A stretch of DNA of 64,000 nucleotides, taken from the NCBI RefSeq assembly GCF_048403405.1, contig NZ_CP183129.1; one strand, written 5' to 3'. Each line of letters begins with the position of its first letter. Positions within the stretch are counted from its first letter, which is position 1. The position numbers are program-made. Positions 58,501-61,500 of this stretch are shown in pieces. The DNA is from Escherichia coli. GTDB lineage: Bacteria > Pseudomonadota > Gammaproteobacteria > Enterobacterales > Enterobacteriaceae.

Positions 58501-61500
58501 CGGGTGGTACTGACGGTAACTGGTATCTGCGTTCTGAATTGCCGCCAGAACCACAACCGCAGCCGCAGCCGCAGCCACAACCACAGCCACACCCCACGCC
58601 GGATAAACCTGTACAGAAGGTCTATCGTCCGGAAGCGGGCTCTTATATTGCGAACATAGCGGCAGCCAACACGCTGTTCAACATCAGAATGCACGATCGT
58701 GAGGGGGAAACTTACTATACCGATGTGTTTACTGGTGAGAAGAAAGCAACAAGTATGTGGATGCGTCATATCGGCGGTCATAATCGCTGGAAGGACAGCA
58801 GTTCACAGCTGAATACGCAAAGTAACCGTTATGTTGTGCAACTGGGTGGCAGCATTGCGCAATGGACTGACGGTCAGGACCGTCTGCAACTGGGGATTAT
58901 GGCCGGTTATGGAAATGAGAAGAGTTCCACGACATCCTCGCTTTCGGGATATAAATCTAAAGGTGCGATCAATGGATACAGCACCGGTTTATACGGAACG
59001 TGGCAGCAGAATGACGGTAATGACAACGGGGCTTATGTCGATACCTGGATCCAGTACGGATGGTTTAATAATGCCGTTAATGGTGAAAAACTGGCTGCGG
59101 AGTCCTGGAAATCCCGTGGATTTACCGGTTCAGTGGAAGCGGGTTATACCTTTAAAGCCGGCGAATTTATCGGTAGCCAGGGTAGCCACTATGACTGGTA
59201 TATTCAGCCGCAGTCCCAGATCACGTGGATGAATGTAAGAGCCAGTGAGCATACGGAGAAGAATGGCACGAAAGTTCAGCTCAGCGGAGACGGTAATATC
59301 CAGAGTCGTCTGGGCGTCAGAACTTACCTGAAAGGTAAGAGTGCGTCTGATGATAATAAGGCGCATCAGTTTGAGCCATTTGTGGAAGTTAACTGGATCC
59401 ATAATACACGGAGCTGGGGTGTCAAAATGGATAATACGGCACTCAGTCAGGACGGAGCTACAAATATTGCTGAAGTCAAAACGGGTGTTCAGGGTAAATT
59501 GTCAGATAACCTGAATGTCTGGGGCAATGTTGGTGTTCAGGCTGGCGATAAAGGGTACAGTGATGCCCAGGCAATGCTGGGTATTAAATATATATTCTAA
59601 TCACACAGTGGCAGGAGGGGACCTCCTGCCACCTCAGGGTTGTCATAATGAGTTCTGTAATGAAATTTTCTGTTGTTAATGCAGTAGTGCTGCTGTTGCT
59701 GATTGTACTTACTGGTGTTTTTTATATGAAAAAGTCAAAAGAAATTGCAGTTGTTAATATCGATGCTATTTATAATCAGTCTACCGCCGGAGACATGGCC
59801 AGAAAGCATCTGAATGAGGTTAAGAGTATTCTTGAAAAAGGATATGAGGATGCGCAAAAAGCATTCGCAGATAACGCGAATAAAGAGGCGCTGCTTCTTG
59901 ATGCCAGACAAAAACTGGAACGACAATATGTTATTGAGGAAAATAGCGCAAAAAAGGTGTTATCCCGTGCGATAGATAATGCCATAGGCACATGGAGAAA
60001 AGACAATCCTAAAAATATTGCCGTATTGTCTTCAGGTGTTGTGCTTGCGCATAACGAGTCAGCTGATATCACCAAAGAAGTCATGACTCTGGTTGAAAAA
60101 GAAAATCTGGTTTTTAATAAATTACCCAAAGTGGAAGTGCACAATAAGAATGAAGAGAAACCAGAACAAAGTAAGTAATCACTAGATTCTGACGATTTCC
60201 AGAAGGGAGATTCAGCAGGCCAGCATCTGTAATCATTCAGATTTGCTGGCTTGCTGCTAAATATGGTTGCTAAGAAAAATAGCAGACCAGTAATTTATTC
60301 AGATTACTGAATATAATAATTTTTCAGGAACGGTTATGCTGAAGGTAGTATGTTTAATCGACACAATTATTTGCTGTGTCTAATATGAGGTGACATTTTT
60401 ATGATCACTGACCAGCAAGACTGACCCGTATTGATTAGCCTGATTATTGGCAACTTATTGGGGTAGTCATTTTGACATCGAATGGGGGAGGTTTCCAGTT
60501 AAGTTCACGAATGCATGATGATTTGCGTTCACATATCGAAGTACTGGTTGACTATACTAAGGATTTTAAGATAACTCACTGATTGTAAGTGGGTTATTGC
60601 GAGGGGGATGATAAATGGTGTCCCCTGCAGACATCTACTTGACGAGGCAGGGGATTGATTGGAATGGTGTTTTTTAGATGTGAGAAATATTTTACCCGCT
60701 ATTTTACCCATTGGCGCGGCTTAAGAGCTTATTTTTGAATTCACAATGGTCACGATATAACCATCTTGCTCGCCCGTGGATAACTTTGGCTTTAGGCAGG
60801 TCGCCGGACTTAATCCGGTCGTAGATGAAGGTTTTACCGAAGCCAGTATCAGCCATGATGAATTTCAAATCAACCAGTGAATCAGGTTGTAGTTCGTGTT
60901 GCATGAGTGCTATCTCCGAATAGGGAATCGAACCTGCAAATCAGGAAATAAAAAACCGCCATCAGGCGGCTTGGTGTTCTTTCAGTTCTTCAATTCGAAT
61001 GTTGGTTACGTCTTATTCGATACGCACTCCTGGTATTTCGCCTTTTGATATTGCTAAGTCATAAATTTGCGCGGCACTATATCCATCCCGCATCCATGAA
61101 TCTAAGGCGCGAACAGCCTCGCTACGCTTTTTATCTTCTCTCTCATTTTTGATATCAACGAGGACATCAACGCAATTAAGGCAAATGTGGATTTTGTCCT
61201 TACATTCGATCATGGCGGCTTTACCATGATTTCCGCCACACAGTGAGCATAAATCTTCAGGGTCTGTCTGGTATTTCTGTAACGTTAGATGGTTGAATGT
61301 TGAACAGGCCATAATCATCTCCATAAAACAAAACTCGCCGTAGCGAGTTCAGATAAAAGAAATCCCCGCGAGTGCGAGGATTGTTATTCATTGCTGATAT
61401 TCACCTTTATCGCGAACACCTTTACCGGTTTATCACCGAAGTGCGGATGTGTGATTGTCTTGATTTCATATCCACCATACGGAACATCAATTCTGCGACT

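Follow-up and report, generated by a model that had tools for sequence, protein, structure and literature searches.

In the usual account, a classical autotransporter depends on no periplasmic chaperones other than the general ones, and to our knowledge locus-encoded helpers are known only for the trimeric adhesins served by SadB and TpgA. A review of folding in type 5 secretion (PMC8151025) lists only four specific helpers, SadB, TpgA, VirK, and OsmY. TpgA (the helper of Acinetobacter AtaA), VirK (Pet), and OsmY (Ag43/EhaA family) are periplasmic factors that prefer particular autotransporters; their folds are unrelated and none is Skp-like. TpgA shares a transcript with its autotransporter; the genes for VirK and OsmY do not adjoin those of their clients. 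UpaE is the autotransporter of the phase-variable ipuA-ipuS-ipuR-upaE locus, whose ipuR and upaE genes have been described as a "two-gene operon" both by Battaglioli et al. in 2018 (PMC6083910) and in a 2019 mSphere paper (PMC6458436).

We analyzed a window of 64,000 nucleotides of Escherichia coli DNA that carries this locus (Table 1). The autotransporter is UpaE, with Pfam matches to ESPR (8.5e-13), Autotransporter (1.5e-39), AC_1 (8.6e-27), and PATR repeats, an architecture of extended signal peptide (ESPR), PATR repeats, autochaperone domain, and beta-barrel in a precursor of 271 kDa; Pfam GerE is present in the Salmonella orthologue of ipuR. As a sequence-only reading of this DNA had it, the 2,637-residue autotransporter is followed on the same strand, 47 nt after its stop codon (59601-59647), by an open reading frame encoding 176 amino acids, flanked by upaE and argW on an accessory island. 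The product is 100% identical to the copy at RefSeq locus L001 (WP_000100046.1) and already bears the names "OmpH family outer membrane protein" in RefSeq and "Chaperone protein Skp" in UniProt; what is new here is the linkage of the gene to UpaE-type autotransporters. The same reading took the pairing as one not known to be characterized for this locus, and the literature agrees: neither paper on the operon ever mentions the gene, and the helpers in the review are other proteins. At the position of the putative Shine-Dalgarno element, a purine-rich element is shared by orthologous loci. The strong hairpin beyond the stop codon of the Skp-like gene was not called by a terminator scan; it is a possible 3' end structure of the transcript. 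A minus-strand open reading frame (59776-60144, 122 amino acids) overlaps the gene and was treated as spurious, since the plus-strand frame has homologues and is under purifying selection.

Table 1. Features of the upaE locus and of the Skp-like gene downstream of it, with positions in the window
Feature	Position	Strand	Description and basis
ipuA	50095-50724	+	Tyrosine DNA invertase (phase switch); open reading frame, identical layout annotated in RefSeq locus L001
ipuR	51042-51662	+	LuxR/GerE-type regulator, first gene of the ipuS-driven transcript; open reading frame, L001 annotation, literature
upaE	51687-59600	+	2,637-aa classical (type Va) autotransporter adhesin; open reading frame call, RefSeq name, Pfam
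Intercistronic hairpin	59608-59632	+	Perfect 11-bp GC-rich stem, 3-nt loop, 7 nt 3' of the upaE stop codon, no U-run
Shine-Dalgarno-like AGGG	59636-59639	+	8 nt 5' of the Skp-like ATG; putative, from sequence inspection
Skp/OmpH-like gene	59648-60178	+	ATG start, 176 aa; directly downstream of upaE
Hydrophobic N-terminal segment, residues 7-26	59666-59725	+	Signal anchor or atypical signal peptide; hydropathy, predicted helix 5-26
Skp-fold core, residues 31-150	59738-60097	+	Predicted strand 32-36, helical hairpin 46-72/79-119, strand 123-128, helix 142-150
C-terminal FNKLPKV, residues 156-162	60113-60133	+	F..LP.V motif marking the OmpH subfamily, then charged tail
Hairpin 3' of the Skp-like stop codon	60213-60256	+	Strong, without U-run; fold z-score -5.16

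The likeness to Skp that had been suggested from the sequence by eye, and graded weak, was borne out by profile search and by structure prediction. On its own the protein is a marginal match to Pfam OmpH (PF03938; i-E of 0.0012 and 0.096), and its membership in the OmpH/Skp family is established through its homologues, 9 of 20 of which match at E <= 1e-3 and 17 of 20 at E <= 0.1 (best, 7.4e-8). When the Skp-like family was searched as a profile, the first matches were the solved OmpH chains 9yju, 9yjt, and 9nhx (E of 0.003 to 0.007). An AlphaFold prediction made with 119 sequences (pLDDT of 93.5, pTM of 0.78) shows the Skp arrangement, with N- and C-terminal beta strands as the body and a long alpha-helical hairpin as the arm, and the structural neighbors of the protein in AFDB are all Skp/OmpH, among them second-Skp proteins from the Enterobacterales genera Citrobacter, Scandinavium, Buttiauxella, and Rahnella; as modeled, it is clearly a Skp/OmpH-fold protein. 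A scan of NCBIfam gave noise only (RseP and SctR at E of about 0.01 to 0.03, far below the curated cutoffs), and a single-sequence search of PDB chains returned nothing relevant apart from a chance match to a nuclease. A Pfam match to DUF1993 (i-E of 7e-4) was rejected as helical-repeat noise because it is shared by 1 of the 20 homologues, against 9 to 17 for OmpH.

The N-terminal hydrophobic segment noticed in the sequence-only reading was recovered with a Kyte-Doolittle peak of 2.67 (19-residue window); it immediately precedes the first predicted beta strand. It consists of 20 hydrophobic residues, lacks an AXA motif, and is followed at once by KKSK, whereas Skp has a cleaved signal peptide. 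Relatives of the protein carry signal peptides or lipoboxes, and its "LTGV" aligns with their lipobox "LSGC", so that V24 stands opposite the cysteine of the autotransporter-linked Yersinia ruckeri homologue, which reads LSGC-D. By a regular-expression count that includes some false positives, a lipobox pattern is present in 62 of the 119 sequences of the wider subfamily, with Asp at +2 in 24 of these. The protein itself lacks the invariant cysteine of a lipoprotein, reading LTG-V with no Cys in its first 45 residues. This alignment suggests that the N-terminus is a decayed lipoprotein signal that would now serve as an inner-membrane tether, although signal peptidase I may have a site after G23. 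The flanking charges (K6 before the segment and KKSK after it) do not clearly favor an N-in orientation. A cytoplasmic orientation of the Skp domain, an idea prompted by KKSK, was judged unlikely because of the signal peptides and lipoboxes of the relatives.

A word-indexed search for homologues reached Escherichia and Salmonella only, while an exhaustive profile search reached the wider subfamily, whose distant members have no recorded names. In every related locus with readable context, the Skp-like gene lies directly behind a UpaE-type autotransporter, save for the close homologue P0028 (locus L009), which has no autotransporter within 826 nt upstream; two further homologues, P0034 and P0178, with just 30 nt of contig before the gene, were left out of this comparison. 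The linked loci comprise the E. coli chromosomal locus and a second E. coli locus, Salmonella diarizonae, P1-like phage-plasmids with different regulators (PapI/PapB), a mobilizable plasmid, the metagenome contigs L007 and L010, and a Y. ruckeri plasmid on which both partners are distant (28% identity for the autotransporter and 33% for the OmpH-like protein). Adjacency, co-orientation, and linkage across taxa, as looked for in a type 5 helper, were thus all found. Farther out in the subfamily, on Desulfovibrio-like and other contigs, the genes stand by themselves. In complete E. coli genomes, the 3' end of upaE and the Skp-like gene were each found in 252 of 5,426 (<5%), with identical place counts. 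The divergence of the Skp-like gene tracks that of the autotransporter beta-domain; the gene's rate of evolution is several times that of UpaE. A pattern scan of the GTDB species-representative genomes matched 156 stretches, none of them a relative, and the close clade is therefore absent from those genomes.

Conserved synteny and matching counts argue strongly for a functional link, and on these grounds the Skp-like protein is a good candidate for a dedicated UpaE helper. They also bear on the idea of a generalist second Skp, which would act as a holdase for outer membrane proteins at large or as a buffer of envelope stress, with no preference for UpaE. The Skp fold, the low sequence constraint, the stand-alone genes away from autotransporters in the wider subfamily, and the display of UpaE without the gene (PMC6083910) would all suit such a protein. 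A generalist would nevertheless be expected apart from the autotransporter at least sometimes; it is therefore disfavored by the position kept behind UpaE-type autotransporters across replicons, regulators, and genera, the same arrangement in the distant Y. ruckeri pair, and the exact count match with upaE in 5,426 E. coli genomes, and we consider it unlikely.

A GC-rich stem-loop without a T-run had been placed at 59610-59630 in the sequence-only reading; the hairpin is real and has no T-run, but it extends further on both sides (Table 1). Its arms (5', 59608-59618, GTGGCAGGAGG; 3', 59622-59632, CCTCCTGCCAC) enclose the loop GGA, and its predicted fold energy is -24.6 kcal/mol; it is unique in the window, and none of 100 shuffles matched it. 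Every UpaE-type locus has the hairpin in this position. Its stem occurs in four sequence versions, 8 of its 11 positions have compensatory changes, and 76 of 77 cells are paired, counting pairs by position from the stem base, as MAFFT placed the stem of locus L008 out of register. The spacing of upaE to the Skp-like gene is likewise kept in all of these loci. There is no T-run 3' of the hairpin in CTCAGGGTTGTCATA, and no U-run follows it in any UpaE-type locus compared; lacking the U-run that should follow the GC-rich hairpin of a Rho-independent terminator, it is a poor intrinsic terminator. It was not called by the terminator scan, neither terminator nor promoter signals rose above chance, and a scan of 59300-60700 against Rfam found no family. 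The sole plus-strand promoter-like site upstream of the Skp-like gene (59328-59357) is weak and lies inside upaE, and the total count of such sites was not above that in shuffles. Given the 47-nt same-strand gap, the lack of terminator or promoter signal above chance, and the conserved spacing and hairpin, it is very likely that the Skp-like gene and upaE share one transcript.

The opposite reading is that the Skp-like gene is transcribed separately, or is a decaying remnant without present function at the locus, and that the hairpin ends the upaE transcript. The position of a GC-rich hairpin directly after the upaE stop codon, the published two-gene operon, and damaged copies (one truncated by IS66, plus frameshifted ones) would fit it. 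We regard it as very improbable in view of the missing U-run in every locus, the absence of a promoter-like site from the 47-nt gap and the weakness of the one inside upaE, a dN/dS of 0.13 to 0.37 (purifying selection), 250 of 252 E. coli copies at full length, and a conserved N-terminus and start region at 63% overall identity. Stabilizer hairpins between cistrons occur in E. coli operons, such as the REP elements in malEFG and the hairpin of papBA processing, and the present hairpin resembles them in being GC-rich, in lying between cistrons without a U-run, and in its structural conservation. It differs from them in not being a REP sequence, in occurring just once in the window, and in having no Rfam family, and its effect on the mRNA is putative.

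How far UpaE depends on the Skp-like protein can be judged from published work. The insert of the pUpaE clone (in pSU2718) of Battaglioli et al. (PMC6083910) extends no further than the upaE stop codon (primer 7800), and the UpaE made from it was surface-displayed and adhesive in K-12 strain MS427, with biofilm formation and binding of extracellular matrix; this strain has neither the ipuA-ipuS-ipuR-upaE locus nor the Skp-like gene. UpaE can therefore do without the protein, at least when overexpressed and with housekeeping Skp, SurA, and DegP present. The dedicated chaperone of the sequence-only reading is not supported in the sense of a required one, and the protein is an accessory factor at most.

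The explanation that we favor, at somewhat better than even confidence for the reading as a whole, is that the gene encodes a co-transcribed, inner-membrane-tethered, accessory Skp-like holdase for UpaE, with the hairpin tuning the message. The gene would share the phase-variable, ipuS-driven message of ipuR and upaE, and its product would be exported by way of the N-terminal hydrophobic segment, most likely left uncleaved as a decayed lipoprotein signal, so that the Skp-like body, presumably a trimer like Skp, would be tethered on the periplasmic side of the inner membrane. At this site it would receive its client, the 271-kDa ESPR-bearing UpaE precursor, on leaving Sec and would keep it, most likely in the region of the C-terminal beta-domain, unfolded and soluble until hand-over to BAM/TAM. 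Its contribution would be accessory rather than obligatory, with better efficiency of display or less envelope stress when the switch is ON. The covarying hairpin, not being an efficient terminator, would govern how stable or how abundant the upaE segment of the message is relative to the downstream one.

Compared with E. coli Skp (HlpA/OmpH; PDB 1sg2 and 1u2m; PF03938), the Skp-like protein is about 15% identical, has arms about 20 residues shorter than those of solved OmpH chains in the profile alignment, and is near neutral (pI of 5.8 for the fold core and 7.9 with tails), whereas Skp is basic (calculated pI of approximately 9.5). Skp is encoded in the bamA-skp-lpxD cluster, whereas this gene sits behind upaE on an accessory island. 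Its place between upaE and argW rather than in the core position between bamA and lpxD, its occurrence in 252 of 5,426 genomes, and its pI mark it as a paralogue and not an orthologue of Skp; by sequence and gene order, the protein is a divergent paralogue. The near-neutral core and the shorter arms mean that client binding may differ. Skp also lacks the C-terminal F..LP.V motif and charged tail; F156, L159, P160, and V162 vary little or not at all, the motif occurs in 86 of 119 subfamily members, and the 10-residue blocks over it have pLDDT values of 98 (151-160) and 88 (161-170). Such features could instead belong to an adaptor or to a membrane-anchored factor for retention or timing, such as one that holds the ESPR precursor at the inner membrane, bridges to TamB/BAM through F..LP.V, or feeds back on the switch or regulator. 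The anchor set directly before the first beta strand, the near-neutral pI and shorter arms, the confidently modeled motif absent from Skp, and the precedent of SadB, for which no chaperone-client contact was detected either (PMC8151025), would be in keeping with that role. We give it a small chance, as no known adaptor has the Skp fold, the fold is of the cavity-forming holdase type, and the Skp seen on the extended translocon of the type 9 secretion system (PDB 8gl8, chain G) is there as a chaperone. That Skp belongs to another phylum and another secretion system, and it is a housekeeping protein, not a locus-specific paralogue.

For the accessory holdase proposed here, the closest functional analogy is SadB of Salmonella and E. 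coli, the helper of the trimeric autotransporter SadA (PMC3953254). Both are encoded in Enterobacterales beside a very large ESPR-bearing type 5 adhesin, SadB in one operon with it and the Skp-like protein probably so. SadB is an inner-membrane-tethered periplasmic protein that improves surface display without being essential for it, and a similar tether and effect on display are what we propose for the Skp-like protein; no homology of the latter to SadB or TpgA was found. A more far-reaching proposal, which we advance tentatively and with less than even confidence, is that this would be the first Skp paralogue to be linked, within an operon, to a type Va autotransporter as its client. A lipoprotein signal turned by decay into a signal anchor would tether it to the inner membrane at the Sec exit, it would be inherited together with the beta-domain of giant ESPR adhesins across chromosomes, plasmids, and P1-like phage-plasmids, and a structurally conserved hairpin would tune the balance between the two products. 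For this phase-variable virulence locus of uropathogenic E. coli, the published two-gene operon would have to be revised to three genes, which matters for reading the phenotypes of ipuS-locked-ON strains. The pair would be tractable for studying the periplasmic survival of a long unfolded passenger and for comparing membrane-tethered with soluble Skp, and the gene may raise yields in surface display on UpaE-type scaffolds. With a Skp paralogue fixed behind an adhesin of 271 kDa, the range of locus-encoded helpers would extend to type Va, and very large Va passengers would then recruit a periplasmic helper of their own, as Vc adhesins are served by SadB.

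The window contains the ipu locus, known from extraintestinal E. coli and subject to phase variation, and the same arrangement, flanked by dsdCXA and argW, is found in RefSeq annotation. The sequence-only reading had proposed that a gene for a weakly Skp-like protein with a hydrophobic N-terminus follows the gene of a giant autotransporter, identified here as upaE, is co-transcribed with it across a stem-loop lacking a T-run and encodes a dedicated periplasmic chaperone for the autotransporter passenger. The ORF, its spacing, the hydrophobic segment and the stem-loop, which is somewhat wider than first described, were all recovered. 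UpaE itself carries an extended signal peptide (ESPR, 8.5e-13), PATR repeats, an AC_1 autochaperone domain and a beta-barrel (1.5e-39). A Pro-Gln repeat (PEPQPQPQPQPQPQPHP) lies in its linker preceding the beta-barrel and appears length-polymorphic across E. coli strains (1201-nt query; matches of 1189-1237 nt, some in two pieces).

Features of the ipu locus and its downstream flank in the window
Feature	Position	Strand	Description
ipuA	50095-50724		From ORF list
ipuS			317-bp spacer, listed between ipuA and ipuR
ipuR	51042-51662		From ORF list
upaE	51687-59600		Autotransporter UpaE, 2637 aa; from ORF list
Pro-Gln repeat	58542-58613		UpaE linker
Promoter-like site	59328-59357	+	Weak
Intergenic hairpin	59608-59632		Perfect 11-bp stem, 3-nt loop, -24.6 kcal/mol
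Shine-Dalgarno-like AGGG	59636-59639		Outside intergenic hairpin
OmpH-like gene	59648-60178	+	176 aa; start 47 nt past upaE stop
Downstream hairpin	60213-60256		Strong; region fold z-score -5.16; no U-run
AlpA-like ORF	60704-60904	-	Followed by phage-like ORFs

Searched by itself, the 176-aa protein matched Pfam OmpH at i-E 0.0012 and 0.096, making "weak" an accurate description at the level of sequence; an NCBIfam scan gave no meaningful match, and a single-sequence search of PDB chains no relevant one. An exhaustive profile search recovered 221 relatives at E<=0.001. Of 20 relatives that were aligned, Pfam OmpH recognises 9 at E<=1e-3 and, when the limit is relaxed to E<=0.1, 17 (best 7.4e-8), and solved OmpH chains are the top matches to the profile of the aligned relatives. 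An AlphaFold model based on a 119-sequence alignment (pLDDT 93.5, pTM 0.78) places a helix at residues 5-26, strands at 32-36 and 123-128, a helical hairpin at 46-72/79-119 and a further helix at 142-150. Taken together, these matches and the model make the predicted Skp/OmpH fold solid, and because profile and fold agree, we file the protein as an OmpH/Skp-family member. Since this annotation already exists ("OmpH family outer membrane protein" in RefSeq, "Chaperone protein Skp" in UniProt), the novelty is confined to the conserved pairing, the putative tether and the covarying hairpin.

The protein is a Skp paralogue, distinct from housekeeping Skp. Its pI is near neutral (core 5.8), against a calculated 9.5 for Skp. 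The arms fall about 20 residues short of those in solved OmpH. A C-terminal motif specific to the subfamily, F..LP.V, occurs in 86 of 119 members, this protein included, and is modelled at high confidence. Four features set the protein apart within OmpH/Skp: the N-terminus resembling a membrane tether, the reduced arm length, the additional C-terminal motif and the fixed partnership with a type Va autotransporter. AFDB holds 171- to 241-aa "Chaperone protein Skp" entries, 20-30% identical to it, from several other Enterobacterales, namely Citrobacter amalonaticus, Scandinavium, Buttiauxella, Rahnella, Erwinia billingiae and Pantoea coffeiphila, which may be further accessory Skp paralogues. 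One metagenome contig (L015) carries two divergent copies of the wider subfamily on opposite strands, about 1.6 kb apart (6-428, minus; 2081-2533, plus).

Residues 7-26 form a 20-residue hydrophobic stretch (peak 2.67, Kyte-Doolittle, 19-residue window). A lipobox pattern occurs in 62 of the 119 members of the wider subfamily (counted by regex, with some false positives among them), with Asp directly after the Cys in 24 of them. A Yersinia ruckeri homologue, likewise behind an autotransporter, reads LSGC-D, and LTG-V of the window protein aligns exactly over its LSG-C. We infer that the lipobox Cys was lost and that the signal now probably acts as an uncleaved signal anchor, tethering the protein to the membrane; cleavage by signal peptidase I after G23 is possible. 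Under the enterobacterial +2 rule, by which Asp at +2 directs inner-membrane retention, the Y. ruckeri homologue would stay at the inner membrane, perhaps less strictly given its Lys at +3. The charges on either side of the segment, K6 and KKSK respectively, leave orientation undecided.

The gene lies on an accessory island and is present in 252 of 5426 complete E. coli genomes; searches with it and with the upaE 3' end gave identical results (252 genomes, 258 places, 250 of the places full length). Its dN/dS against orthologues is 0.13-0.37, and homologues as little as 63% identical show no change in the N-terminal MSSVMKF or in many residues of the core. In the syntenic loci the gene comes directly after a UpaE-type autotransporter gene, at a distance of 47 nt or nearly so. 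These include Salmonella enterica subsp. diarizonae (order invertase-GerE-autotransporter-OmpH), P1-like IncY phage-plasmids and four IMG/VR contigs (PapI/PapB-type regulators, GerE gene downstream), a mobilisable plasmid contig, contigs L007 and L010 and a second E. coli locus, in which IS66 interrupts the OmpH-like gene. A Y. ruckeri plasmid holds a distant pair (autotransporter 28% identical over 860 residues, OmpH-like protein 33%). The gene evolves several times faster than UpaE, and its divergence follows the beta-domain, not the passenger: at locus L008, identities are 92% for a passenger segment, 71% for the beta-domain and 44% for the OmpH-like protein. Functional linkage of the gene to UpaE is well supported. 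Because more distant members include stand-alone genes, and one close homologue has no autotransporter in the 826 nt upstream, autotransporter linkage, as judged from gene neighbourhoods, is a property of an enterobacterial clade and not of the whole subfamily.

On the IncY phage-plasmids (L005, L018 [NZ_CP127299.1] and L025-L028), the cassette adjoins phd/doc, and the PapI/PapB-type regulators replace the ipuA/ipuS switch. In L010 (2760-2830), a T-run is one base too short for the hydrophobic N-terminus and the Skp domain to share a reading frame, and the called protein (P0029) starts at the M27 equivalent; this could be assembly error, decay or slipped-strand variation. On the Y. ruckeri plasmids L012 (NZ_CP084645.1) and L017 (NZ_CP084644.1), genes for an autotransporter, an OmpH-like lipoprotein and a SapC-family protein form a trio; on the second plasmid a frameshifted OmpH-like copy comes after S6-peptidase (SPATE-type) autotransporter genes, again with SapC behind it. 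CFT073 upaE (L019, NC_004431.1, 1-3000) is a frameshifted pseudogene per RefSeq, with an intact OmpH-like gene (WP_000100043.1); despite that label, 271-kDa UpaE was detected in locked-ON CFT073 (Battaglioli et al. 2018, PMC6083910).

The intergenic hairpin has no second copy in the window, and none of 100 shuffles produced its match. All UpaE-type loci have an 11-bp stem beginning 6-7 nt past the stop codon: the window and most loci share GTGGCAGGAGG, whereas E. coli strain C10 has GTGGCAGTAGG, L008 has GTGTGGTAGGG and L010 has GTTGCCGGAGA, the 3' arm varying to match the 5' arm in each version. Counted by stem position, two-sided changes occur at 8 of 11 positions and 76 of 77 cells are paired, the exception being a C.U in the Salmonella locus. 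The pairs are all Watson-Crick, so the strand is not deducible from them; where the hairpin lies points to an RNA element in the plus-strand message. No U-run follows it in any UpaE-type locus, so it is no canonical terminator, and the terminator scan of the window, where a T-run is likewise absent, did not call it. Rfam has no family for it, and at the Y. ruckeri locus the gap is 25 nt long and lacks such a structure. Most likely the hairpin would either protect the 8-kb upaE segment by acting as a 3' barrier or stabilise a processed downstream segment by capping its 5' end; either mode would set the ratio of UpaE and OmpH-like products.

No promoter-like site was found between upaE and the gene, and the only plus-strand site upstream of the gene is weak; total promoter-like sites were not above shuffles. 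This is consistent with co-transcription of the two genes. Published work describes a two-gene operon and did not include the OmpH-like gene among those tested (PMC6083910), and a later study measured ipuR, upaE, dsdC and dsdX only (mSphere 2019, PMC6458436). The downstream hairpin, which follows the OmpH-like stop codon, may be the structure in which the transcript ends. Agreement of the window with the reference arrangement stops at 60630, inside the minus-strand tRNA-Arg gene argW, of which 15 nt at the 3' end are included; an intact tRNA was not found. Past that point (region 60616-64000) lies a prophage or island. Because the reference match ends in argW and phage-like ORFs lie beyond, a mobile element has inserted at argW, at a distance of 452 nt past the gene. 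The GenBank record of Escherichia phage GER2 (L024, MG710528.1, 2691-12775) includes flanking host sequence, in which ipuA appears as "integrasse", the OmpH-like gene as "hypothetical protein" and UpaE, split in two, as "long tail fiber proximal subunit" genes; this seems to be a prophage beside argW that was mis-annotated.

The original proposal is partly supported. A Skp-like fold and a functional link to UpaE have good support, and chaperone action on UpaE is a plausible candidate role, but published data contradict "dedicated" in the sense of required. The pUpaE construct, whose reverse primer ends at the upaE stop codon, gave 271-kDa, surface-located, adhesive UpaE in K-12 MS427 (PMC6083910), a strain without the ipu locus. 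Because UpaE was displayed from a clone without the gene, the OmpH-like protein is not required under those conditions; it may have a quantitative or stress-relief role.

The specific factors named in a review of type 5 secretion folding (PMC8151025) are VirK and OsmY, together with SadB and TpgA, which are encoded in operons and serve trimeric adhesins only. A 2026 survey that looked at the gene neighbourhoods of trimeric autotransporters added no other helper. We found no description in the literature of a Skp-like gene beside an autotransporter, in line with the expectation that the pairing was uncharacterised for this locus. The nearest structural relative of the OmpH-like protein is Skp itself, and its nearest functional analogue is SadB, the inner-membrane-tethered, trimeric helper of ESPR-bearing SadA.
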